Shown here in pieces: positions 4,317-56,127 of a DNA stretch of 64,000 bases. The notes under the pieces are model-generated. The model saw only the letters and a program-made list of their open reading frames with translations, did not search any database and was not told where the DNA came from. Source of the DNA: Kiritimatiellia bacterium (GTDB taxonomy: Bacteria > Verrucomicrobiota > Kiritimatiellia > RFP12 > UBA1067); contig JAZSLQ010000125.1 in the NCBI GenBank assembly GCA_045535455.1, positions 1,894 to 65,893 on the forward strand, written 5' to 3'. The position numbers and the translations under genes were made by a program. How positions within the stretch are numbered: the first letter of the stretch is position 1; every line of letters begins with the position of its first letter.

Positions 4317-4865
4317 ATGTCACAGGAATGGAACATCAAGTCACGCGGCCATGTATGCAGTCTATGCCAGAAGCCGCTCGTCGACCGCGCGCCGGTTGTG
4401 AGCGCGCTTAAAGAAACCCCCGAGGGGTATGAGCGTTTCGACTGTCACCCGGAGTGCTGGAAGACCGCCGAGCGCGACTGGGAGCCGTTTTCGCAGTGGG
4501 ACGGCGTCTATCTCGCGCCTGTGAAGGAAGAGAAGAAGGAGCCGCTTAAGAAGGAGGACGCGGGCGAACTTTTGCGCCAGCTCGTCACGCTCGACGACCC
4601 CGCGATGAAGAACGTCGTCTATGTCCTCGCCGTGATGCTCGAGCGCTCGAAGATACTCGTCGAGCGCGATGCGAAGGAGCTTGAGGACGGGAAGATACGC
4701 CGCGTTTACGAAGACCGCAAGCAGGGCGACACTTTCGTCATTCTCGATCCGCGTCTCCGTCTTGAGAACCTTGCAGAGGTGCAGTCCCAGGTCGTCGCGC
4801 TCCTCTCGGGCACGAAGACCCTCGGCGAAGTCGCCAATGAGGAAGACTGCGCCGCCGAGGCGTGA
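4317..4865 (+). CDS. hypothetical protein, N-terminal Cys/His-rich (zinc-ribbon-like)
   Basis: Clean ORF tightly packed after the rluA-like gene. Contains a CxxC...CHPEC arrangement. Confidence 0.5.
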   Translation: MSQEWNIKSRGHVCSLCQKPLVDRAPVVSALKETPEGYERFDCHPECWKTAERDWEPFSQWDGVYLAPVKEEKKEPLKKEDAGELLRQLVTLDDPAMKNVVYVLAVMLERSKILVERDAKELEDGKIRRVYEDRKQGDTFVILDPRLRLENLAEVQSQVVALLSGTKTLGEVANEEDCAAEA

Positions 4866-5022
4866 TATTGGCGCTAGCTCTTGGCGCTGGCGAAAATTTT
4901 TTCGGGGAAAGCGAGCAGACATCAGCGCGAGATCTTAGCCTACTCAACCGGGCTCCAGCCACGACTCAAAAGTGCGCATGTCCGAAACGTGTATTTACAG
5001 GTTTATTGTCCTTCGCAGACAT

Positions 5023-5033
5023 GTAGTATAATG
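5023..5033 (+). promoter_or_regulatory. extended -10 promoter TGTAGTATAAT with a leaderless start for the SIS gene
   Basis: TATAAT spans 5028-5033 and the ATG is at 5039. Confidence 0.45.
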
Positions 5034-5038
5034 AGCAC

Positions 5039-5647
5039 ATGAAAGATGCGCTTGAGGAGCTCTATTCGCGAAACCCATGTCTTGAACAATGCAGGGATGC
5101 CGTCGCTAACGCTTTTAACGTGCTTCTCTTTGCATTTCGCTCGGGTGGCAAGGTGCTTGTGTGCGGCAACGGCGGAAGTGCGGCGGACGCAGAGCATATC
5201 TGCGGCGAACTGCTGAAGAAGTTCAAGAGGCACCGTGCAGTCCCTGCGGAAATATCGTCGAAACTCAGGCCCGAACTCGCAGACAGGCTGGAAGGGGCGC
5301 TGCCGGCGATTTCGCTTGTTTCGATGAGCGGGATTCTCACCGCGTTTGCCAACGACGTTTCGTGGAAGACTGCCTTTGCGCAGCAGGTGCTTGCACTTGC
5401 GAAGCCGGATGACGTGCTGATCACGCTTTCTACGAGCGGCAACAGTGCCAACTGCATTGCCGCTGCGGAGGTGATGAAGGCCGTCGGAGGAAAGACGATA
5501 TCCTTTACGGGTAAGAACGCGTCGTGTCTCTCGGAAATATGCGACATCACCATTCGCGTCCCGGAAACGGAAACCTACAAAGTACAGGAACTGCACCTGC
5601 CAGTATATCATGCGCTATGCGCGGCAATCGAGGAGGAGATGTTTTAA
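5039..5647 (+). CDS. SIS-domain sugar-phosphate isomerase (GmhA phosphoheptose isomerase or DiaA-like)
   Basis: VLVCGNGGSAADAEHICGEL is the GmhA SIS signature. Protein is 202 aa. Confidence 0.8.
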   Translation: MKDALEELYSRNPCLEQCRDAVANAFNVLLFAFRSGGKVLVCGNGGSAADAEHICGELLKKFKRHRAVPAEISSKLRPELADRLEGALPAISLVSMSGILTAFANDVSWKTAFAQQVLALAKPDDVLITLSTSGNSANCIAAAEVMKAVGGKTISFTGKNASCLSEICDITIRVPETETYKVQELHLPVYHALCAAIEEEMF

Positions 5648-5680
5648 AGTGTAAAGTGTAAAATGTAAAGTGTAAAATTG
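5646..5680 (+). repeat. heptanucleotide tandem array, five copies of AAAGTGT/AAAATGT
   Basis: aaagtgt aaagtgt aaaatgt aaagtgt aaaattg begins inside the gmhA-like stop codon and ends 17 nt before the ROK start. Confidence 0.9.
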
Positions 5681-5697
5681 TCGGAGGGAAAAAGGAA

Positions 5698-6786
5698 GTG
5701 AAACTGAAAATAGGTTTGGATATTGGCGGAACGAAGTGCGCCATATCGACCGGGGAGTGCGAAGACGGCGCGATAAAGATACTCTCGCGCGAGGAGTTCC
5801 CTACCGCAGGACTTTCCTGGCAGCAGGTCCTCGACGAGTTCGCAAGGCGAATTGAAAAACTGGCGGACAATGGACATGCGACATGCGACGACCGACATGC
5901 GGTGGCGGCGATCGGAATCAGCTGCGGCGGGCCGCTCGATTCTAAGCGCGGCGTGATCATGTCGCCGCCGAATCTGCCGGGATGGGACGATGTGCCGGTC
6001 GTCAAGTTCTTCGAGGACCGCTTCCATGTGCCGACGGCGGTGCAGAACGACGCCAACGCCTGTGCGCTCGCAGAGTATCTCTATGGTTCCGGGCGCGGCG
6101 CGAAGAGCATGGTTTTCATGACATTCGGCACGGGCCTTGGCGCGGGAATCGTCATAGACGGGAAACTCTACTCCGGAGCGAACGACAACGCGGGCGAGAT
6201 CGGGCACATTCGCCTTGCTCCGACTGGCCCTGTCGGATACAACAAGGAGGGGAGCGCCGAAGGCTTTTGCTCCGGTGCCGGAATAGCGCGTCTCGCCAAG
6301 ATCAGGAAGGGGCTTGATCTTACGACAAAGGAGATATTTGCGCGCGTCCGCGCCGGAGACCCAGACTGCACGGAGGTCTTTCGGGAGTCGGCCGAAAAGC
6401 TTGCGGCGATTCTTGCGTTCACAATCGACATCCTCAATCCCGAGGTGATTGCGCTCGGCGGCGTGTTTATGCGCAACGCCGATCTGTTCATGCCGATAGT
6501 AGACCCGATCCTCAACCGCGAGGCTATGCCGCTTGCGAGGAAGGTCTGCCGGATTGTTCCGGCGGAGCTTGGCGAGACACTTGCGAAAATAGGCAAAGGC
6601 GCGGAGCGGATTCGGCTCGTGGGCTTCGACGATGTTGAGGTCGCGGCAAAGCTCAACATTACGTCGGCCCGCCAGCCGCTCGACGCCATTGCCGAAGTCG
6701 CCATGCAGACCCTCGTCTCTCGCATAAAGAAGCCCGATCTCCCGCCGCGCACGATTCTTCTCGACGCGGAGCTCGTCGTGCGGTAG
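5698..6786 (+). CDS. ROK-family sugar kinase, or repressor-less kinase, with a C-terminal extension
   Basis: GTG start. MKLKIGLDIGGTKCAIS... with the ROK glycine-rich motifs. Preceded by a GGAGGGA Shine-Dalgarno. Confidence 0.8.
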   Translation: MKLKIGLDIGGTKCAISTGECEDGAIKILSREEFPTAGLSWQQVLDEFARRIEKLADNGHATCDDRHAVAAIGISCGGPLDSKRGVIMSPPNLPGWDDVPVVKFFEDRFHVPTAVQNDANACALAEYLYGSGRGAKSMVFMTFGTGLGAGIVIDGKLYSGANDNAGEIGHIRLAPTGPVGYNKEGSAEGFCSGAGIARLAKIRKGLDLTTKEIFARVRAGDPDCTEVFRESAEKLAAILAFTIDILNPEVIALGGVFMRNADLFMPIVDPILNREAMPLARKVCRIVPAELGETLAKIGKGAERIRLVGFDDVEVAAKLNITSARQPLDAIAEVAMQTLVSRIKKPDLPPRTILLDAELVVR

Positions 6787-6829
6787 AGACGGATATGCCT
6801 GCATTTTGTTCACCACTGACACGCCGACA

Positions 6830-6840
6830 TGTGGTACAAT
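6830..6840 (+). promoter_or_regulatory. extended -10 promoter TGTGGTACAAT upstream of hicB
   Basis: Match to the TGnTAnAAT consensus 25 nt upstream of the ATG at 6865. Confidence 0.4.
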
Positions 6841-6864
6841 ATGCGGCGAAAGGACAAATAGTCG

Positions 6865-7068
6865 ATGCGCATATCGTACACGTACTGGCAGGACCCAAAA
6901 GATAAGCTCTGGGTTGGCTTCTGGAATGACTACCCAGACTATGTGACGCAGGGACATGACCTTGCGGAGCTTCAGTATATGCTACGTGACATCCGTGACG
7001 CGATTCGCGACGGCGACTTGCAGGACACGCGCCGTTCCATTGGCGTGATGGACATGGAGTATGCATGA
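6865..7068 (+). CDS. hicB: HicB-family antitoxin, short form (UPF0150)
   Basis: LWVGFWNDYPDYVTQGHDLAELQYMLRDIRDAI is the HicB N-domain pattern. Overlaps hicA by 4 nt. Confidence 0.65.
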   Translation: MRISYTYWQDPKDKLWVGFWNDYPDYVTQGHDLAELQYMLRDIRDAIRDGDLQDTRRSIGVMDMEYA

Positions 7069-7259
7069 AGCGCATAGATCTTCTGCGCAGACTTGAAGAG
7101 GAAGGGTGTGTCCTTGTTCGTTCTCGTGGCGGGCACGACATCTACCGTAATGTCATAACTGGCACTACTCAGCCTGTCCCGCTTCATCGGGAAATAAACG
7201 AAATAACGGCGAAGTCTATTATCAGGCATTTGTCCGCGCCAGAAGAATCGGAACAATAA
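7065..7259 (+). CDS. hicA: HicA toxin (YcfA-like mRNA interferase)
   Basis: MKRIDLLRRLEEEGCVLVRSRGGHDIYRN...PLHREI is the canonical HicA fold sequence. Confidence 0.75.
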   Translation: MKRIDLLRRLEEEGCVLVRSRGGHDIYRNVITGTTQPVPLHREINEITAKSIIRHLSAPEESEQ

Positions 7260-7450
7260 CACTTTTTCATCCTCTCTTTGGGCATAAGCCTATCCCGAGG
7301 GGTAAAGGGGGGCGGACCCTTCTGTATATGCTTAACTGTATATGAGTGGCTGCGTGTCCCGCGGAGCGGCTGTTTCCGTGCGGACGCTGAAACGGGCGCA
7401 TCATTTGGAATCCTTGATCCTTCCGCCCGCCCGTGCCGAAATATGGTAAA

Positions 7451-7461
7451 TGTGGTATAAT
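7451..7461 (+). promoter_or_regulatory. extended -10 promoter TGTGGTATAAT
   Basis: Followed by a GGAGG Shine-Dalgarno at 7472-7476 and the ATG at 7484. Confidence 0.5.
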
Positions 7462-7483
7462 ATGCGGCGTTGGAGGAAATGAC

Positions 7484-7843
7484 ATGGCTACATCGAGCAT
7501 AACGGCGAAGTTTGAGGCAAATGAGGCAAAGGCGATGGATGCACTTGCCTCTGGCATTGCCGCCGTGTTTCGCAGGATTGCTCCAGTTGATGGGAAAGCC
7601 ATTCTTTTCGGCTCACGCGCCCGAGGCAACGCCAGGCACGACAGCGACTGGGATGTTCTTGTGTTGCTTGGCAAAGACCGGATAACCGCATCGGATCAGG
7701 ACGCCGTCGCGTACCCGATTCACGAAATCGGCTGGGAGATTGACGAAATGGTCAACCCTGTAATGTACACGATGCGCGACTGGGAGTCAAAGCGCGGAAC
7801 GCCATTCTACGAAAATGTGATGAGAGATGGGATCGCGCTGTGA
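7484..7843 (+). CDS. minimal nucleotidyltransferase (MNT) antitoxin
   Basis: LFGSRARGNARHDSDWDVLVL is the classic polymerase-beta nucleotidyltransferase motif. Start set at the internal ATG after the Shine-Dalgarno. Confidence 0.8.
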   Translation: MATSSITAKFEANEAKAMDALASGIAAVFRRIAPVDGKAILFGSRARGNARHDSDWDVLVLLGKDRITASDQDAVAYPIHEIGWEIDEMVNPVMYTMRDWESKRGTPFYENVMRDGIAL

Positions 7844-8250
7844 GCATGACGAACGAAGAACGAGACGCGGTGGTGGAGCTGCGCATCGCCAAGGCCTATC
7901 GTGCATACGAAGAGGCAAAAGGCGTTGTGGTGCTGAAGTATTGGGAGACTGTTGCCAATCGGCTCTATTACGCAGCCTACAACGCCGTTACAGCTTTGCT
8001 GCTTGCCAATGGTGATACGGCGCAGACGCATAGCGGAGTGCGCCATATCTTCGGGCTTAAGTTCATCAAAACAGGCGTCTTGCCATCCGAAACAGGACGG
8101 CTCTATCACCGTCTTTTCTCAATGCGTCAGACGGGGGATTATGATGACACATACGATGTTGCCGCAGAAGACGTCCTGCCCAATATCGAACCTACCGGCA
8201 AGTTGCTTGATGTTGTTGTCGCAAAGGCAAGAGAACTGATTGCCGAGTGA
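7840..8250 (+). CDS. HEPN-domain toxin, partner of the MNT protein
   Basis: Overlaps the MNT gene by 4 nt. A helical protein with an R(X)4-6H-like motif region (MRQTGDYDD). The MNT-HEPN gene order is conserved. Confidence 0.7.
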   Translation: MSMTNEERDAVVELRIAKAYRAYEEAKGVVVLKYWETVANRLYYAAYNAVTALLLANGDTAQTHSGVRHIFGLKFIKTGVLPSETGRLYHRLFSMRQTGDYDDTYDVAAEDVLPNIEPTGKLLDVVVAKARELIAE

Positions 8251-14518: not shown

Positions 14519-15264
<746 letters not shown>

Positions 15265-15268
<4 letters not shown>

Positions 15269-36601: not shown

Positions 36602-39139
36602 ATGGTTAAGTCCGGCATAACTCAAGACGAGGTGATCTCGTGGGGCGGCGCAGAGGTGTTCAACCAGGCGCTGGCAATCGTCAATTCCGGCGACGTGAAG
36701 GATGTCGCCTACGACGACGAGACGCTTGAGATTCGCGGCAAGATCGAGCAGCCGAGCGGATGGGATATGCCGGTTTCGTTCTTTCTTAAGCCCGGCGGTC
36801 GCATAGAGTCGCATTGCCCCTGCGACACCAACAGGCGCTTCGGCATGGTGTGCCAGCACGTAGTGGCAGTGGGCTATGCTCTCGCCTTGAGCGAGATGGA
36901 CGATGTCGAGGAAGGGAAGCCACGCGGCGTGCGCGAGGAAGAGCCGGACGAGCCGCAGGAGGAAGAGGACTTCATCGAAGTCGAGACGAAGCCGAAGTTC
37001 TCGGCGTTCGTCGCCGGTTCGCGCGCGTCGCTTTCGATAGAGATTGACGCGCACTACGGCGAGATTGAGTTCCCGGTCTGTTCGGTGCAGAGTGCGCGGA
37101 CAGTCTATCTTCCCGATCCCGACGATCCGCTTGTGCGTCGTGTGCGCTCGATGAAGACGGAGCGCGAGGCGGTGAAGGCCGTCGAGAAGTGGGGCTTCTC
37201 TCCTGGATACAACGACGGCGACTTGCGGCTTTACATCACCGATCCGCAGAAGGTGCTCAACTTCCTCGGTGCGGGGCTTCCCGCTCTCCGGCGCAAGGGC
37301 TGGCGCATAGACCTCGCCGACAAACTGATGGAGCTTACGGACGCTATGCCGTCCGTCGTGCCTGTCGTCACGGTGCGCGACGCTCCGAACGGCGCGTTCG
37401 ACGTCTCCTATACTTTTGACGCGATGGGTTACGAGGTGTCGCCTGTCGAGATACAGGCCGCGCTGAACCGTGGCGACGGCTACATCATGAAGGACGGGGC
37501 AGTTGTCCTTCTCGACAACTCAGCTATTGAGGTGATGCACGGCGTATTTCGTGACTGTGCACCGTCGCAGAACGGTGCGGCGGCTGGATGGTTCCGCGTC
37601 GATTCCGTCCACGCGCCATACGTCAAGGCATCGCTCGATCTCCTTGACTGCATTGACCTCGACGATTCTGCCGCGCGGCGCTGGCGCGAGACTGCGGCAG
37701 CGAGGAACCGCGACTCCGGCGCGAAGTTCGAGCCAGTCGCGCTTGGTCCGCTCGACAACATCTTGAGGCCTTACCAGAAGCAAGGCGTATATTGGATGCG
37801 TTTTCTCGAGAACGCGGGGCTGTCGGGTCTTCTCGCAGACGAGATGGGTCTTGGAAAGACGCTACAGACTTTGACATGGCTCTCGCTCCCACACTCCTCC
37901 ACTCCACCACTCCCACACTCCTCCACTCATCTTCCCTCGCTCATTGTTTGCCCGACTTCGCTTGTCAGGAACTGGGAAGCGGAGGCGAAGAAGTTTACGC
38001 CGTGGCTAAAGGTCCTTGTTGTGTCTGGGCCTGATCGTGCTGACACCTTTGGGCTTATAGACGCGTCCGATGTCGTCGTCACTTCCTACGCGCTTCTCCA
38101 GCGTGACTTCGAGGACGCATATCTCGGACACAAGTTTTCCGCCGTCGTGCTCGACGAGGCGCAGCACATCAAGAACAGGCAGACGAAAAACGCGAAGTCT
38201 GTGAAGATGCTCGACGCCGAGCGGCGACTCGTTCTCACAGGCACGCCTGTGGAGAACTCGGTCGCTGACGTTTGGTCGATCTTCGACTTCCTCATGCCCG
38301 ACTACCTTGGCGACTACGAGACGTTCAAGGCGAATTTCGAGGAGCCGATTGCCGACGGCGGCGCGGCGGGAGAGGAGGCGCAGGCGCGGCTTAAGCGCAA
38401 GCTGCATCCTTTCATTATGCGTCGTCTCAAGAAGACTGTCGCGAAGGACCTTCCCGACAAGATTGTGAAGGTTTCCTACTGCCCGATGTCGGAGGACTCG
38501 CAGCGCGAATACAACGAGGCGCTTGCAAAGACGCGGCGTCAGGCGGGCGACGCGATACGCGAGAAGGGTTTTGCGAAGTCGAAGTTCGAGATACTTGCGA
38601 TGCTGATGAAGTTGCGGCAGATCGCGTCGCGCGCGAAACTCGATGCGTTCCTGGAACAGCTCGAGAGCGCGATAGAGGGCGGGCACAAGATCCTCGTCTT
38701 CTCGCAGTTCGTGAAGATGCTCGGGACGATAGCCGAGGAGCTGAAGGAACGCGGTGTGCCGTTCTGCTATCTCGATGGCTCGACGAAAGACCGCCTTGGC
38801 GAGTGCAACCGATTCAACCATTCGCCCGAGATACCGGTATTTCTCATCTCGCTTATGGCGGGCGGCACGGGTCTCAACCTCACTGGCGCCGACATGGTGA
38901 TGCACTACGACCCGTGGTGGAACCCTGCGGTAGAAGACCAGGCGACGGATCGCGCCCACCGCATCGGGCAGAAGAAGACGGTCTACGTCATGAAGATGAT
39001 TGCGTCGGGTTCAATCGAAGAGAAGGTTCTCGCGCTTCAGCGTCGCAAGCAGGCGGTGATTTCCGCGACAGTCTCGACGACCGACGAGGCGGTAATGGAG
39101 CGCCTCACCGCCGACGACCTCGCCTCGCTCCTGTCGTAG
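36602..39139 (+). CDS. SNF2-family helicase with an N-terminal SWIM zinc finger
   Basis: SWIM motif CPCDTNRRFGMVCQHV. SNF2 motif I LADEMGLGKTLQ. DEAQHIKN and the helicase C-terminal blocks are present. Contains an in-frame duplicated PHSST segment. Confidence 0.85.
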   Translation: MVKSGITQDEVISWGGAEVFNQALAIVNSGDVKDVAYDDETLEIRGKIEQPSGWDMPVSFFLKPGGRIESHCPCDTNRRFGMVCQHVVAVGYALALSEMDDVEEGKPRGVREEEPDEPQEEEDFIEVETKPKFSAFVAGSRASLSIEIDAHYGEIEFPVCSVQSARTVYLPDPDDPLVRRVRSMKTEREAVKAVEKWGFSPGYNDGDLRLYITDPQKVLNFLGAGLPALRRKGWRIDLADKLMELTDAMPSVVPVVTVRDAPNGAFDVSYTFDAMGYEVSPVEIQAALNRGDGYIMKDGAVVLLDNSAIEVMHGVFRDCAPSQNGAAAGWFRVDSVHAPYVKASLDLLDCIDLDDSAARRWRETAAARNRDSGAKFEPVALGPLDNILRPYQKQGVYWMRFLENAGLSGLLADEMGLGKTLQTLTWLSLPHSSTPPLPHSSTHLPSLIVCPTSLVRNWEAEAKKFTPWLKVLVVSGPDRADTFGLIDASDVVVTSYALLQRDFEDAYLGHKFSAVVLDEAQHIKNRQTKNAKSVKMLDAERRLVLTGTPVENSVADVWSIFDFLMPDYLGDYETFKANFEEPIADGGAAGEEAQARLKRKLHPFIMRRLKKTVAKDLPDKIVKVSYCPMSEDSQREYNEALAKTRRQAGDAIREKGFAKSKFEILAMLMKLRQIASRAKLDAFLEQLESAIEGGHKILVFSQFVKMLGTIAEELKERGVPFCYLDGSTKDRLGECNRFNHSPEIPVFLISLMAGGTGLNLTGADMVMHYDPWWNPAVEDQATDRAHRIGQKKTVYVMKMIASGSIEEKVLALQRRKQAVISATVSTTDEAVMERLTADDLASLLS
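37887..37928 (+). repeat. imperfect 24-nt tandem duplication (TCCCACACTCCTCCACTC twice) inside the SNF2 helicase gene
   Basis: Two 18-nt identical cores are separated by caccac. They encode PHSSTPPL and PHSSTHLP between helicase motif I and motif Ia. Confidence 0.8.
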
Positions 39140-51350: not shown

Positions 51351-52484
51351 CTATGCTTCCCGTTTCCCTTCCTTTGCCGACTGGCGGCGGTATTCGCGCA
51401 TGGTCATGCCGGTTCGCTTCAGGAAGAACCGCTTTGCGTATCCGTCCGATTCGTATCCGCTGCGCTCCACCACCATCGCGATGGGAAGTGTGCTGCTCGA
51501 CAGGAGTTCGCGCATTTTCTGTAGACGTATTTCATGGATTTCGTCTAGGATTGAACGGCCCGTTTCCTTTCTGAACCGGCTTGTCGCAAGCGCGCGCGAG
51601 CAGTTCATTTCGGCGGCGATGGCGTCAATGGAAAGTCCTGGCTCGCAGGCGTGGCGCCTGATGAACTCGCGCGCACGGCGCACACGTGCGCTGACTCCCG
51701 GAGTTGTGTCCGTGGAGCCGCGACGCACGATGCGCAGCGGGCCATAGTATTCGGTGCGTACGCTTGTGCCGTTGTCGATTTCCTCCGCGAGCATCTGGGC
51801 CATGCGCCATCCGGCGCCCTCGAAGTCGGGTTCGACGCTCGTGATGCCGGGTTTCACGGCCTCGCAGTACGCCTCGTCGTTGTCGATTCCGACGATGCGC
51901 ACTTCATCGGGCACTGAAAGCCCCACCTTTGTCGCTGCGTTATATGCCTCCATGGCGCAATAGTCGTTCGCACCGAGTATGCCACACGGTTTAGGCAAAT
52001 CCCTTAGTGTCTCTTCGAGAGACGCGAGCGCCAACGTGACAAGCGTCTGCCCGGCAGCGGCAGTATCGGACTTGAAGCGTTTAAAGCGCGCCTTGTCCCA
52101 GTGAATGCCCTTGCCTGTGCCGAGGTAGGCGTAGGATTTGCATTTGCACCTCAGGAGGTCCTTGACGGCCAATGCCGCGGAAGCGGCGGAATCGTGCAGA
52201 AGGCACGGATGTTCCTTCGACGGCATCTCGGGGTTCTGGTCGAGGTATATGGTCGGGATTCCCCTGAAGACGTTGTCGGGCGCGCTCGCCGTGCGCATTG
52301 CGCGATCCACAAGACAGCCGATGGGAGCCCATGTTTTCAGTGCTCGGCGGATATCCGAGGTGGTCGCGAATCGCTCCACGACCTGCACGAACCAGTCGCG
52401 CTCCTGTGCAAAGCGGTGGACGCCCGAGAGCTTCTGTAGCCAGCTCTTACGTGTTGTGGACTGGAAGAAAAGTACTGTTTTCAT
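51351..52484 (-). CDS. AraC/XylR-family transcriptional regulator with an N-terminal periplasmic-binding-protein-like sugar-sensing domain
   Basis: The C-terminal AraC HTH pair (GLSIDAIAAEMNCSRALATSRFRKETG...MREYR) and an N-terminal LacI/PBP-like fold. Divergent from the DUF5107/TPR gene. Confidence 0.8.
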   Translation of the reverse strand: MKTVLFFQSTTRKSWLQKLSGVHRFAQERDWFVQVVERFATTSDIRRALKTWAPIGCLVDRAMRTASAPDNVFRGIPTIYLDQNPEMPSKEHPCLLHDSAASAALAVKDLLRCKCKSYAYLGTGKGIHWDKARFKRFKSDTAAAGQTLVTLALASLEETLRDLPKPCGILGANDYCAMEAYNAATKVGLSVPDEVRIVGIDNDEAYCEAVKPGITSVEPDFEGAGWRMAQMLAEEIDNGTSVRTEYYGPLRIVRRGSTDTTPGVSARVRRAREFIRRHACEPGLSIDAIAAEMNCSRALATSRFRKETGRSILDEIHEIRLQKMRELLSSSTLPIAMVVERSGYESDGYAKRFFLKRTGMTMREYRRQSAKEGKREA

Positions 52485-52508
52485 TGTGAGTATAGCATAT
52501 CATAATCC

Positions 52509-52538
52509 TGTCCGATTGACTATGTTTTATTTGTCCTA
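52509..52538 (+). promoter_or_regulatory. conserved 30-bp cis-element TGTCCGATTGACTATGTTTTATTTGTCCTA, a candidate AraC/XylR operator
   Basis: A near-identical copy is at 58569-58598. It contains TGTCC half-sites 22 bp apart and sits about 30 bp upstream of the -10 element. Confidence 0.5.
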
Positions 52539-52564
52539 TGGGATAACACATCGAGCAGGCGTCT

Positions 52565-52573
52565 TGGTACAAT
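52565..52573 (+). promoter_or_regulatory. extended -10 promoter TGGTACAAT, near-leaderless
   Basis: Located 12 nt upstream of the ATG at 52585. Confidence 0.4.
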
Positions 52574-52584
52574 TATGGCCAGAT

Positions 52585-55500
52585 ATGAAAGCGAAGAACA
52601 GTCTGATAATTGCGATCCTTGCATCATCCGCTTTGGCATCCGCCTACGCTGGCGAGGTGTTGATGAACGAAGACACGATCGTCCTTCCGACGTATGCGCC
52701 CGGCGGATACGACAAGACGCCGCTTTTCTATACCGGGCGCGTCTACCAGGGCGCGCAGGGGCGCGTCTACCCGTATCCGATGCAGGACGTCCTGCACGAC
52801 GAGAAGTTCGACGAGACGTACAAGTACCTGACGCTCGAGAACGACTGGCTCCAGATGGGGCTTCTACCCGAGCACGGCGGGCACCTCCTCAACTTCACCG
52901 ACAAGGCGACCGGATTCGAGACGTTCTACCGCCAGCATGTCATAAAGCCCGCGCTCATCGGAATGCTCGGCGCGTGGATATCCGGCGGCGTCGAATGGAA
53001 CTTCCCGCACCACCACCGCGCGACGACGGCGATGCCCATCGACTGGCGAGCGGTCGAGAACGCGGACGGATCGAAGACGATCTGGATCGGCGAGACAGAG
53101 CTCAGGCGCCGCCTCAAGTGGACGATAGGTCTTTCGCTCCTCCCCGACCGCGCCGTGTTGAAAGCGGAGAACGTCTTCATGAACCGCCAGCCGTGGATCG
53201 AGTCGATGATCTACTGGGCAAACGTGTCCGTCCACTGTGGCGACGACTACCAGATTCTCTTTCCGCCTTCGATGCACCTCGGCTTCGACCACCACAAGAA
53301 CTACTGGACGAGCTTCCCGATCGGACCGAGGAAGGAGGAAGTCGAGCTCCTTCCGTCGCAACGCTCGAAATACGCGAACGACATCTCCGGCACGATGGAC
53401 CTCAGCTGGTGGAAGAACTTCACCATTGAATCGCGCTCCATCTTCGGCATGGATCCCGACAACTCCTTCATGGCCGGATACGACCACAAGAAACAGTGCG
53501 GTACGGCGCACGTCTCGAACAGGCACATCACCGTCGGCAAGAAGTTCTTCCTCTGGGGCAACTTCCCCGAGGCGCACGTGTGGGACAAGGTGCTTACGGA
53601 CAATGACGGACCGTATCTCGAGCTGATGGTCGGATGCTGGTCCGACAACCAGCCCGACTATTCGTGGATAGCGCCCTACGAGACGCGCAAGGTCGAGCAG
53701 TTCTGGTTCCCGGTGAAGGGGATTGGCGGCATCAAGAACGTGACGATTGACGGTGCGGTGAACGTCGACCGCCTTTCGGATGACAAGATGCTAGTCGGTT
53801 TCCACTCAACGCGCGTGCTAAAGGGGTGTACGATTACTCTCTTCAAGGATCGCGAGGCGGTCTTCGCCGAGAAGGGCGTCGCCATTGATCCGAATAGACC
53901 ATGGTGCAAGACTGTCGCCGTCGAGAATGGTGTTGCCGATCAGCGTTACACGGCTACAATCGCCGATGCTTCAGGCAAGGTATTCCTCTCCTACACGCCC
54001 GTTCCGCCGCAGGGAGACGTGGAACTGCCGCCGAAGGTGGAGAATCCGAAAGAGCCGAAGGAATACACGAGCGCCGAGCTCGCCTACGAGGTCGGTCTTC
54101 GCCTCGATCAGTTCCAGAACGGGCTCATCGATCCCGAGCCATACTACAAGAGGGCGCTCGAGATTGACCCAGACTATTCGAAGCCGAATCTTGCGATGGG
54201 CGTACGGCTGGCGAAGAACGGAAGCTACGTCGAGGCGAAGCCGTATCTAGAGAGGGCAGTTGCGCGCGCAACGCAGAACCACACGCGTGCGCTCGACGCC
54301 GCGCCGGAGTACTACCTCGCGCTCGTGGAGCGATATCTCGGCAACCTGAAGCGAGCGGAAGACCTCTTCTGGCGCTGCACCTGGCGGCTTACGCACAAGA
54401 AGGAGTCGTATGTCGAACTTGCCAGAATTGCCGCGCTCAAGGGCGACTGGACTGAGGCGCTTGCGCGAATTGACGATGCGCTTACGCTTGGGTCTGACGA
54501 GGCAAAGCTCTGGACGATGAAGGGGATATTCCTTCGGAAGTTGAAAGTTGAAAGTGAAAAGTGTAAAGTTGGGGATTCATACGGCAACTCTAAACTTTCA
54601 ACTTTAAACTTTAAACTTGCGCTCGACAGAGCGCAACAGTGCGATCCGCTGGAATATTGGGCGGTCGTGGAGCGCGACGGTTTTGCCGCGGCCGAGAAGA
54701 ATCGCGGGCTCAAGGCGCAGCAGCTTCTGGAGTGCATCAGTGACTACTGGGGAATCGGCTGCTATGACGAGGTGATCGCGCTCTGCGACGCCGCGCTTGC
54801 GAAAGCCGCCACAGAGAAGCCCTACGCTACCGAGGGCGCGCTTCCGCTCAAGGACACCATCGCCGCGTGCGACAGCTACAAGAACGCGCTCTTCGGCTAC
54901 TTCAAAGGAGCGGCGATTGAAAAGTTGAAAGTTGAAAGTGAAAAGTGTAAAGTTGAAAGGAGTGTCGACAGCAACTTTAAACTTTCCACTTTAAACTTTA
55001 AACTCGCGCAAGCGGCGTTTGCCGCCGCTGCCGCGATGCCGACGGACTACTGCTTCCCGAACCGGCTCGAAGAGGAAGAGGTTCTGAAGATCGCAGCGGT
55101 CGCCGCGCCCGAACTCGCGAACACATGGTACTACCTCGGATGCTGCGAGTGGAACCATGACCGCAAGGACGCGGGACTCTCCGACTGGAAGAAGTGCGTA
55201 GAGCTGATGCCGGAGCACGCGCTCGCTTTGCGCTGCATCGGCTTCGCTCTTTCGCATCCCGGGACGTACTTCACGAACACCGGTATTCCGTCCGGCGTGC
55301 CGAGCAAGGAAGCATACGAATACTACCTCAAGTCGCTTGCCGCCGATCCCGGCAACTTCCGCACGCTCGACGAGGCGGGCAAGCTCGCGGAGAAGCTGAA
55401 GCTCCCGGCGGCGGAACGCCTTGCGCTGATGGAGAAATATCGCGCGACGGTCGACAAGTACGATCCGTGCATTCTGCGATATGCCTACACCTTGAACGCA

Positions 55501-56127
55501 GTCGGGCGTTTCGCCGAGGCGCACGAGATACTCACAACGCGCCGCTTCCACGTATGGGAAGGAGCGGACGGACTTCTCGCGCCATTCGTCGAGTCCTGCA
55601 TCGGCCTCGGGCTCAAGGCTATGGAGGACGGCAGGGCGCTCTCGACGAGAGCGCCGGACGGCGGTTTCATCGAAACCGCCCTACCGGATGCGGCTGCCGG
55701 GAAATACCGTCTCGCTTTGGCGTATTTCGAGGAGTCGACGACTTATCCCGAAAACCTCCAGGCGGGGCGTCCGGGCGACGCAGGCACCGAGCCGAAGAGC
55801 CGCTACTTCATGGCTCAGTGCAAGAAGGCGCTGGGCGACGAGGCGGGATACCGCGCGGAGCTCGAAAACTCCCTCAAGGGATGGATCCATGCGGGCGAGA
55901 TGGACTACTGGCGCGTCAAGGCCCTGCGCGAACTCGGACGAGACGCCGAGACCGCTCCTCTCATCGCGGAAATGAAACAGGCGATAAAGGAGCTTGAGAC
56001 GCCGCAGCCCGTCGTCATCAACGCATACGCGAAGTTCGCGGGCGACAATTCTGCGATGGAGCGCGCGGCCAAGGCCCGCGAAAAGGCCGGCTTCCTCCGT
56101 TCGCTCCTCTCCGAGATCGACAGGTAG
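52585..56127 (+). CDS. large exported protein with a DUF5107-like N-terminal domain and C-terminal TPR repeats, carrying two in-frame hairpin-repeat insertions
   Basis: Signal peptide MKAKNSLIIAILASSALASAYA. The conserved N-terminal 500 aa or so is followed by TPR-like helical repeats. The low-complexity KLKVESEKCKV...KLSTLNFKL segments appear twice. Confidence 0.65.
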   Translation: MKAKNSLIIAILASSALASAYAGEVLMNEDTIVLPTYAPGGYDKTPLFYTGRVYQGAQGRVYPYPMQDVLHDEKFDETYKYLTLENDWLQMGLLPEHGGHLLNFTDKATGFETFYRQHVIKPALIGMLGAWISGGVEWNFPHHHRATTAMPIDWRAVENADGSKTIWIGETELRRRLKWTIGLSLLPDRAVLKAENVFMNRQPWIESMIYWANVSVHCGDDYQILFPPSMHLGFDHHKNYWTSFPIGPRKEEVELLPSQRSKYANDISGTMDLSWWKNFTIESRSIFGMDPDNSFMAGYDHKKQCGTAHVSNRHITVGKKFFLWGNFPEAHVWDKVLTDNDGPYLELMVGCWSDNQPDYSWIAPYETRKVEQFWFPVKGIGGIKNVTIDGAVNVDRLSDDKMLVGFHSTRVLKGCTITLFKDREAVFAEKGVAIDPNRPWCKTVAVENGVADQRYTATIADASGKVFLSYTPVPPQGDVELPPKVENPKEPKEYTSAELAYEVGLRLDQFQNGLIDPEPYYKRALEIDPDYSKPNLAMGVRLAKNGSYVEAKPYLERAVARATQNHTRALDAAPEYYLALVERYLGNLKRAEDLFWRCTWRLTHKKESYVELARIAALKGDWTEALARIDDALTLGSDEAKLWTMKGIFLRKLKVESEKCKVGDSYGNSKLSTLNFKLALDRAQQCDPLEYWAVVERDGFAAAEKNRGLKAQQLLECISDYWGIGCYDEVIALCDAALAKAATEKPYATEGALPLKDTIAACDSYKNALFGYFKGAAIEKLKVESEKCKVERSVDSNFKLSTLNFKLAQAAFAAAAAMPTDYCFPNRLEEEEVLKIAAVAAPELANTWYYLGCCEWNHDRKDAGLSDWKKCVELMPEHALALRCIGFALSHPGTYFTNTGIPSGVPSKEAYEYYLKSLAADPGNFRTLDEAGKLAEKLKLPAAERLALMEKYRATVDKYDPCILRYAYTLNAVGRFAEAHEILTTRRFHVWEGADGLLAPFVESCIGLGLKAMEDGRALSTRAPDGGFIETALPDAAAGKYRLALAYFEESTTYPENLQAGRPGDAGTEPKSRYFMAQCKKALGDEAGYRAELENSLKGWIHAGEMDYWRVKALRELGRDAETAPLIAEMKQAIKELETPQPVVINAYAKFAGDNSAMERAAKAREKAGFLRSLLSEIDR
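54541..54619 (+). repeat. inverted pair of heptamer arrays (GAAAGTT-type arm, 16-nt spacer, AACTTTM-type arm), a hairpin-forming element inside a CDS
   Basis: tgaaagt tgaaagt gaaaagt gtaaagt then the spacer, then aactcta aactttc aacttta aacttta aacttgc. Confidence 0.9.
54918..55007 (+). repeat. second inverted pair of heptamer arrays inside the same CDS
   Basis: Six forward units (tgaaaag ttgaaag ...) then a 13-nt spacer, then five reverse units (aacttta aactttc ...). Confidence 0.9.

Follow-up and report, generated by a model that had tools for sequence, protein, structure and literature searches.

The 64-kb stretch of DNA analysed here (the window; contig JAZSLQ010000125.1 of a Kiritimatiellia bacterium) carries a short tandem array of heptanucleotides at the junction between a gene for a SIS-domain sugar-phosphate isomerase and a gene for a ROK-family sugar kinase. 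This array is called the SIS–ROK array below. The features that define the locus are listed here.

5027–5032, + strand: TATAAT, probably the −10 element of the promoter of the SIS–ROK unit, 6 nt upstream of the SIS ATG
5039–5647, + strand: gene for a SIS-domain (GmhA-like) sugar-phosphate isomerase of 202 amino acids (aa), from the list of open reading frames (ORFs), Pfam and NCBIfam
5645–5704, + strand: lineage-specific insert of 60 nt, from alignment A2 and listings of the junctions
5683–5688, + strand: Shine-Dalgarno sequence GGAGGG of ROK, 9 nt upstream of the ROK start
5698–6786, + strand: ORF for a ROK-family sugar kinase with a GTG start (Pfam ROK 1.1e-53; Peripla_BP_3 at aa 303–362)

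The gene labels of the original prediction, which was made from the letters of the window, agree with Pfam: the first product matches SIS_2 (2.4e-20) and SIS (4.6e-14), and the second carries the ROK domain. The SIS protein scores 142.6 bits against the NCBIfam gmhA model, under the cut-off of 209.45, and is therefore called only GmhA-like.

Five units can be read off the sequence: AAAGTGT at 5646–5652, 5653–5659 and 5667–5673, AAAATGT at 5660–5666, and an 8-nt unit, AAAATTGT, at 5674–5681. The earlier description as five copies of AAAGTGT is fair for what are four clean heptamers and one unit bearing an extra T. Tandem Repeats Finder (TRF) delimits the array at 5645–5676 (period 7, 4.6 copies, 92% matches, score 57); if the units are phased as TNTAAAR, its first position is 5642, within the last Phe codon of SIS. 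The SIS stop (TAA, 5645–5647) is supplied by the first repeat unit, and the array does begin inside it, from 5646, as had been proposed. Each unit has a TAA, and three units in series close all three + strand frames. The intercistronic gap (5648–5697) is indeed 50 nt, but the array does not fill it: the final 16 nt (5682–5697, CGGAGGGAAAAAGGAA) are not repeat. The distance from the array to the GTG is 16 nt, not 17, and the array end at 5681 does lie next to the ROK Shine-Dalgarno sequence.

The array is genuine and far above chance. Under one fixed criterion, the window holds six period-7 arrays, one period-8 array and none of periods 4–6 and 9–12, whereas period-7 arrays average 0.005 in 200 simulations from a third-order Markov model. 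A probe of two-and-a-half units (AAAGTGTAAAGTGTAAA, at most three mismatches) finds 12 matches in the window against 0.02 expected; all of them fall in the SIS–ROK array or in arrays at 54.5–55.0 kb, which bears out the proposal that the intergenic array shares its unit family with arrays inside genes. Simple sequence repeats (SSRs) are head-to-tail units of 1–9 nt in at least three copies, longer or more frequent than composition predicts and polymorphic by whole units among close relatives. The SIS–ROK array shows each of these properties, with gaps among relatives only in the array.

The junction has a different form in most relatives. In about 25 related loci, at 65–84% SIS identity, the SIS TGA overlaps the ROK TTG (TTGA) and no spacer is present. 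These junctions read ..CTGTTTTGAACATCGG.. or, in a longer form, ..GAGGAGGAGCTGTTTTGAACATCGG.., and their Shine-Dalgarno sequence, GAGGAGG, lies inside the SIS coding sequence. In the SIS tree, the deep branches and most of the others belong to overlap loci, and array-bearing loci form scattered derived groups. By sequence comparison, the junction is ancestrally a TTGA stop/start overlap. Alignment A2 sets the window beside four overlap-type loci and three types of allele and gives the 60-nt insert exact borders, between ..TGTTT and TGAAxATxGG.. Most of the insert is the array; it also holds the new Shine-Dalgarno sequence GGAGGG, the new GTG start and two extra codons; the old TTG start is CTG at 5704–5706 in the window, with the new GTG two codons upstream. 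The window is from an uncultured rumen or gut bacterium of the Kiritimatiellae; its related loci belong to Kiritimatiellae assembled from rumen and gut metagenomes, and one folP homologue carries the name Kiritimatiellae.

Strain loci were reached through members of the window SIS protein cluster, and their unit numbers are given here.

L169 (99.7% identical to the window over 1.6 kb): 5 units, same as the window
L168 (99.0% identical over 4.4 kb, gene order the same): 3 units (TACAGTG, TAAAGTG, TAAAATTG)
L081 (flanks 92% identical): 5 units identical to those of the window
L082, L180 and L181 (sister allele): 3 units
L183 (sister allele): 4 units
L001, L002 and L170–179 (sister allele): 5 units
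L003 (sister allele): 6 units
L182 (third allele, C): units AAGTTCR, beginning with the ancestral TGAAG

The sister allele is built of GAGAGTT/AAGAGTT units and occurs in strains 86–94% identical to the window. The comparison among strains that the original prediction had proposed shows variation, with five versus three units at 99.0% identity and three to six units within the sister allele. In L168, the 14-nt loss is the sole small indel in the 4.4-kb alignment with the window. The ROK Shine-Dalgarno sequence and start are intact in every allele compared; the start codon keeps its position (GTG in the window, ATG in sister alleles), and the 3' tail GGAGGAT..ATGAAA.. is common to all three alleles.

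What moves with the allele is the end of SIS. In the window, the native stop lies 50 nt before the ROK start. In sister alleles of four to six units, the stop is within the array, giving tails GELRVKS, GELRVES or GELRVKSGELRV. In the 3-unit sister allele, SIS gains 16 aa and ends in a TGA that overlaps the ROK ATG (4 nt, ATGA; seen in L180 and L181, with gene coordinates 848–1504 and 1501–2436 in L180). In L168, the 14-nt loss and a TAA>TAC change remove the stop and leave a single 577-aa SIS–ROK ORF (..EEEMFYSVKCKIVGGKKEVKLKIG..). Across alleles, SIS tails measure 0, 7, 12 or 16 aa, plus the 577-aa fusion. A "three-state frame cycle", in which each unit would shift the frame of ribosomes leaving SIS, was rejected as a general rule because in-frame stops in the first units end translation early, except in the 3-unit alleles.

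Two earlier expectations are therefore best divided. Copy number was expected to alter the intercistronic region in spacing and structure; the SIS stop is indeed moved, overlapped or lost, but the array has no structure, either as RNA (z −0.95) or as DNA (−0.7 kcal/mol). Translational coupling was the right theme, as the ancestral TTGA overlap indicates; a stop that overlaps or abuts the next start is found in the roughly 25 TTGA relatives and in the 3-unit sister allele (ATGA), but the window has a 50-nt gap. Nor was a structured RNA, a terminator or a + strand promoter found in the spacer: folding gives no signal, Rfam covariance models over 4800–7400 give no match at E up to 1, and a consensus scan of the spacer for + strand promoters and terminators finds none.

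Between window-type and sister alleles, identity exceeds 95% in the coding flanks but is only about 60% in the spacers, which are equal in length and align without gaps. This is the pattern expected if repeated slippage spreads a few unit-level changes through the array. Flank variants are shuffled among allele types, L081 sharing variants with L001 and the window with L002/L003.

The window has eight related period-7 arrays. Only the SIS–ROK array is intergenic; the other seven are in frame inside genes, a distribution that speaks for a mutational habit of the whole genome and not for a regulatory element placed there. Arrays within genes are listed here.

5873–5901, + strand: GACATGC x4 array, in frame in a loop of ROK (TRF)
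14735–14769 (x5) and 14928–14969 (x6), + strand: AACTCTC arrays, in frame in folP (14519–15268; TRF)
54536–54620 and 54918–55006, + strand: two palindromic heptamer-array elements, in frame in a 1329-aa ORF (52138–56127)

The folP arrays belong to the same unit family as the SIS–ROK array, in reverse orientation, and both carry the same variant unit. The 54.5- and 54.9-kb elements include AAAGTGT/AAAGTTG units of this family, form hairpins as DNA (z −5.3 and −5.1) and have left arms identical at 34 of 34 positions; they look like copies of one element. The odd unit order common to these array pairs hints at copying or conversion. In the DNA compared, Kiritimatiellae-like loci (497 kb) contain 57 period-7 arrays with three or more copies, and other bacteria (895 kb) contain 6; for period 8 the numbers are 23 and 0 in the same sample. 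Many of the loci are homologous and the counts are not independent, but the contrast is clear all the same.

The same junction carries other repeats in other lineages. GGGGAAY arrays of 3–5 units, some interrupted, occur there, as do a GTAGAAC array with its inverted copy forming a palindrome (L084 and L111), CACAAAT units (L089/L090) and a purine-rich tract (L102/L103). Each of these arrays is then followed by a purine-rich Shine-Dalgarno sequence and ATG, and GGAGG lies upstream of the new ROK start in both the window-clade and the GGGGAAY alleles. Since the arrays of several lineages are unrelated, the SIS–ROK junction has been colonised several times. Predicted folding of the ROK initiation region, with minimum free energy (MFE), is compared between the two junction types here.

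Overlap group: 23 loci, TTG start, mean local MFE −11.7 kcal/mol, mean unpaired probability 0.47
Spaced group: 16 loci, ATG or GTG start, mean local MFE −5.1 kcal/mol, mean unpaired probability 0.63

Mann-Whitney p values are 1e-4 and 3e-5, and they do not amount to a formal test, the loci being related. The window has the highest predicted unpaired probability of the set, 0.85. Greater openness follows automatically from AT-rich sequence within a genome of 58–60% G+C.

These observations favour, with moderate confidence, a slippage-prone heptanucleotide SSR that uncoupled two overlapping cistrons and is now a mutable, probably near-neutral spacer. The insert separated the cistrons: SIS ends at the TAA of the first unit, and ROK has its own Shine-Dalgarno sequence and GTG. 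Differences in unit number would arise by slipped-strand mispairing, and the unit sequence would be homogenised over time, as the divergence between alleles suggests. The array would then be a spacer that is mutable and under little or no selection for function, tuning the SIS:ROK ratio weakly at most and not acting as an on/off switch. In the window allele, where the TAA of the first unit is in frame, changes in unit number can only alter the spacer before an intact initiation site, a region predicted to be A-rich and unstructured, and their effect on ROK is likely small. The contingency element of the original prediction is not favoured, as nothing indicates a switch: the Shine-Dalgarno sequence and start are kept, seven of the eight arrays lie in coding sequence, and the genes are metabolic. 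Contingency loci typically concern surface, host-interaction or restriction-modification genes; here, a sugar isomerase and a sugar kinase are followed, in relatives, by an MFS transporter and a regulator.

Several points weigh against this reading. The 3-unit fusion allele is known from one metagenome contig only, and near-neutrality is what we infer from the sequences. The 5-unit array of L081 is identical to that of the window although the flanks are only 92% identical; the mosaic flanks point to recombination as the reason, and purifying selection on the array was rejected as an explanation on the same ground. At each of the independent arrays of the junction, the start codon is stronger and the initiation region more open, in a comparison of overlap and spaced loci that ignores phylogeny; selection for uncoupling could explain the repeated arrays as well as a permissive site does. 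A further point concerns origin. The window array with its 3' edge (TTTTAAAGTGT..AAAATTGTCGGAG) aligns at 39 of 45 positions with an element of L104/L005 that lies downstream of another gene, and this element fits the window array better than the window's own sister allele does, so that an origin in place is not secure.

The array might instead be a copy of a dispersed, possibly mobile heptamer-array element, similar to MITEs (miniature inverted-repeat transposable elements) or repetitive extragenic palindromic (REP) sequences and often palindromic, which was inserted at the junction or replaced an older array there by ectopic conversion rather than growing in place. This alternative concerns origin and is compatible with SSR behaviour of the array; we consider it unlikely. 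The window and L104/L005 elements each have five units and a TG(N)CGGAG edge, and the L104 copy is an arm of a palindromic pair. The window array aligns poorly with the allelic GAGAGTT array, array pairs in the window share idiosyncratic unit order (the 34/34 left arms and the folP variant unit), and L084 and L111, far apart in the SIS tree, have the same palindromic element at the junction. However, both the window and the L104/L005 elements start at a gene end coding Phe-TAA (TTTTAAAG), which equals one unit, and the 39/45 match would reflect either convergent growth from the same seed or copying between sites. Allele C (L182) begins with the ancestral TGAAG, as growth in place predicts, and the 3' tail is common to three alleles. 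Terminal inverted repeats or a stable hairpin, by which MITE and REP elements are recognised, are absent from the SIS–ROK array, with no inverted partner within 2.6 kb, and there is no clear target-site duplication and no second copy of the array and edge within the 64-kb window. A search for phage similarity gave no match. Finding TGTAAAATTGTCGGAGGG or GTAAAGCTGCGGAG at unrelated loci would support copying.

In L104 itself (476–601 and 721–936), a gene end is followed by two TNTAAAG arrays that form a palindromic pair around a 58-nt centre; L005 has only the left arm. A 72-aa ORF adjoins the L104 pair, flanked by ATTGATACAG inverted repeats and without a Pfam match. A transposase link through this ORF, which looked IS200/RAYT-like, was dropped when Pfam gave no support, and neither the window nor the other loci contain a homologue.

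A second alternative is a tunable or phase-variable coupling element, in which unit changes would be selected and would reset SIS termination relative to the ROK start, thereby altering ROK output or the SIS:ROK ratio. Units do vary between strains 99% identical and from three to six in the sister allele, the SIS stop may be 50 nt upstream, inside the array, ATGA-overlapping or absent depending on the allele, the ancestral state is a coupled TTGA overlap, and arrays have been gained repeatedly at this junction. A heptamer SSR in the 5' untranslated region also controls expression of Haemophilus influenzae hmw1A (PMC12721329). Nevertheless, the in-frame TAA of the first unit leaves only spacer length variable in the window, and GGAGG and a start codon in every allele mean that ROK need not rely on coupling. 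With only three to six units, no RNA structure, metabolic genes, and arrays of the same family mostly inside genes, selected tuning appears rather doubtful.

It is less probable still that the array is a selected cis-element for ROK translation, its A-rich leader serving as a ribosome standby site, an S1-type enhancer or a site for an RNA-binding regulator. The window tops the set in predicted accessibility (0.85 versus a mean of 0.47 in overlap loci), other arrays of the operon also lie just 5' of a Shine-Dalgarno sequence (e.g. GTTAGTN before the next gene), and a comparable hypothesis exists for TAACTGA repeats upstream of start codons (PMC4679880). Same-site arrays elsewhere are, however, unrelated (G-rich GGGGAAY, a palindrome) and share no common motif or physical property, while accessibility follows trivially from AT-rich sequence in this genome and its comparison is not phylogenetically independent.

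A broader and equally improbable reading sees an active, lineage-specific process in rumen Kiritimatiellae that makes and copies heptamer arrays, the SIS–ROK array being one copy and its units a heritable dial between coupled, uncoupled and fused states. Such a process may produce single arrays as well as palindromic pairs, in frame in essential genes (folP) and repeatedly at junctions, and unit changes could reset gene boundaries because 7 is not a multiple of 3. If true, such repeats would form a new class, small and self-propagating, with a part in reshaping gene boundaries. The weakest proposal, a minus-strand promoter in which TTTACA-17 nt-TACACT would drive antisense RNA into SIS, is very improbable: its one sigma-70-like match (5676–5648, 9 of 12 positions) compares with 1.1 sites in shuffles of the same 3.2 kb, that consensus may not be that of the host phylum, and sister alleles are without the same hexamers.

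Taken as an SSR, the array has several relatives among known systems; the class nearest to it is that of the heptanucleotide long SSRs, a kind known to predominate in repeat-rich bacterial genomes. A literature search for heptanucleotide repeats in Kiritimatiellae found no relevant report. Heptamers are described as the commonest class of long SSR in bacteria (Mrazek 2007, as cited in PMC4679880; PMC4692102), and polymerase slippage is given there as the accepted model for long SSRs. The bacterial long SSRs described in these sources (Mrazek et al. 2007; cyanobacterial short tandemly repeated repetitive sequences, STRR) likewise have tandem 7-nt units in few to several copies, are strongly over-represented in particular lineages only and change by whole units. 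Non-multiple-of-3 units are reported to avoid coding sequence, whereas many window arrays are in frame in genes, and the SIS–ROK array also differs in replacing a stop/start overlap.

The (ATCTTTC)n repeats of H. influenzae hmw1A/hmw2A, of which the hmw1A repeat is the nearest functional parallel, are heptameric, transcribed, upstream of the start and strain-variable (PMC12721329, PMC8262952). They have at least 11 units as an arm of a long hairpin processed by RNase III, expression falls with unit number (PMC12721329), and the product is an adhesin of a host-adapted pathogen, unlike the SIS–ROK array with its three to six units, no hairpin, intercistronic position and metabolic genes. TAACTGA repeats of marine Beggiatoaceae, cyanobacteria and Bacteroidetes are also heptamers in 2–6 copies just upstream of starts, some in ORFs (PMC4679880). 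They use one unit genome-wide, overlap the ribosome-binding region and usually have no canonical Shine-Dalgarno sequence (PMC4679880), whereas Kiritimatiellae units differ by site and allele and canonical GGAGG follows the array; the SIS–ROK unit is AAAGTGT/AAAATGT and falls outside the TAACTGA family. GGGNATC repeats of Xanthomonas and Nostoc lie between co-oriented ORFs, at most 50 bp from stop or start, and are transcribed and variable in unit number (PMC4692102). They form G-quadruplexes, which need at least four tracts of at least three G; the SIS–ROK units are without G runs and cannot. The GGGGAAY arrays at the same junction in other lineages do resemble the GGGNATC class.

Changes in repeat-tract length can fuse or split genes, and ATGA or TTGA overlaps couple translation of neighbouring genes; known cases of such fusion and fission mostly involve homopolymer tracts in host-adapted pathogens. 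Unit changes in the SIS–ROK array similarly move the stop, restore ATGA or fuse the ORFs; the difference is that the fusion in L168 combines a change in 7-nt units with a point mutation of the stop codon. In-frame insertion into genes is known for Rickettsia palindromic elements and other MITEs, and the roughly 85-nt palindromes at 54.5 and 54.9 kb of the window likewise lie in frame in a protein gene; the resemblance bears on the family of arrays and not on the SIS–ROK array itself. Unlike these known elements, the SIS–ROK array is non-palindromic, the arms of the window elements are heptamer arrays, and the window heptamer elements show no evidence of transposition.

Two observations stand out: housekeeping genes carry arrays in frame, and the alleles of the SIS–ROK junction form a series of separate, overlapping and fused genes. 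The series, among close strains, takes a coupled pair to separate, re-overlapping or fused genes and is a clear natural case of repeat-driven gene-boundary plasticity among uncultured gut bacteria of this lineage. As a strong trait of rumen and gut Kiritimatiellae, in housekeeping genes too, heptamer arrays pose a risk for annotation, as gene callers will yield variable C-termini and fusions at them. Should expression depend on unit number, enzyme stoichiometry would here be set by an intercistronic heptamer dial, the first of its kind; otherwise, the locus would be of use as a neutral marker for typing strains of these bacteria.

Around the junction, the ROK ORF is itself a fusion, of ROK to about aa 293 with the last ~60 aa of a GntR-HTH/LacI-type regulator. 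In L081, L001 and L002, the gene order is ROK (308 aa), MFS transporter (400 aa) and regulator (352 aa); relative to these loci the window is without about 2.1 kb (from BLAST and gene order), and the joint falls at an ELGE microhomology at 6562–6577. This fusion is no assembly error, because strain L168 has it too. The SIS–ROK operon may be decaying in the species of the window. Upstream, TTTACA lies ~27 nt further from TATAAT (region 4995–5041), and the TATAAT/SIS-start layout recurs in the distant relatives L005 (296–345) and L104 (956–1005); it could mean that the mRNA is leaderless and the promoter unusually spaced. Downstream of ROK, window positions 6865–8250 hold a HicB-like/HicA pair and an NTP_transf_2/HEPN pair, and strain L168 is without 151 nt inside hicA (window 7149–7299; L168 2900–2980).

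The SIS protein cluster of the window has 309 members at 90% identity and holds SIS, ROK and the fused ORF; the fused ORF probably links the SIS and ROK proteins into this one cluster. L184 begins right after the array (1–21) and L185 ends inside SIS, neither spanning the junction, and L186 ends in Illumina adapter sequence (767–799) with no junction. Exact-protein look-ups of the window SIS, ROK and FolP found no record, and the folP neighbourhood gave no route to strain variants, since its close relatives are not syntenic with SIS–ROK within 10 kb.

The ROK loop (before IGISCGGP) carries unrelated heptamers by lineage, namely GACATGC, AACTTCA, CAACTCN and AGCTTCA. L081 and the window differ in the ROK-loop array and share the intergenic one. 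Arrays of the ROK loop and of the post-ROK spacer, where GTTAGTN/GTCGTTG arrays recur just 5' of the next gene's Shine-Dalgarno sequence, are located in relatives as follows.

ROK loop: L003 4084–4115
ROK loop: L004 4223–4263
ROK loop: L100 5751–5782
ROK loop: L106 1545–1573
ROK loop: L111 1205–1244
ROK loop: L089 1060–1117
Post-ROK spacer: L004 4965–5004
Post-ROK spacer: L087 2493–2527
Post-ROK spacer: L089 1837–1879
Post-ROK spacer: L100 6495–6521
Post-ROK spacer: L113 1442–1466
Post-ROK spacer: L002 11595–11638

Elsewhere in the window, the 54.5- and 54.9-kb elements, each about 85 nt, consist of a heptamer array, a 14–17 nt loop and an inverted array, and they occupy non-homologous protein sites. 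The period-8 array at 37892–37928 is CACTCCTC x4.6. The folP arrays are translated within dihydropteroate synthase (DHPS) as NSQLSTLNFQL and KLSTLNSQLSTFSS; compared with solved DHPS structures, the first adds just 3 aa. Some 30 FolP homologues at least 93% identical keep the length of 249 aa, and more distant ones have other repeat peptides; one pair measures 242 versus 235 aa, a 7-aa difference equal to three heptamers.

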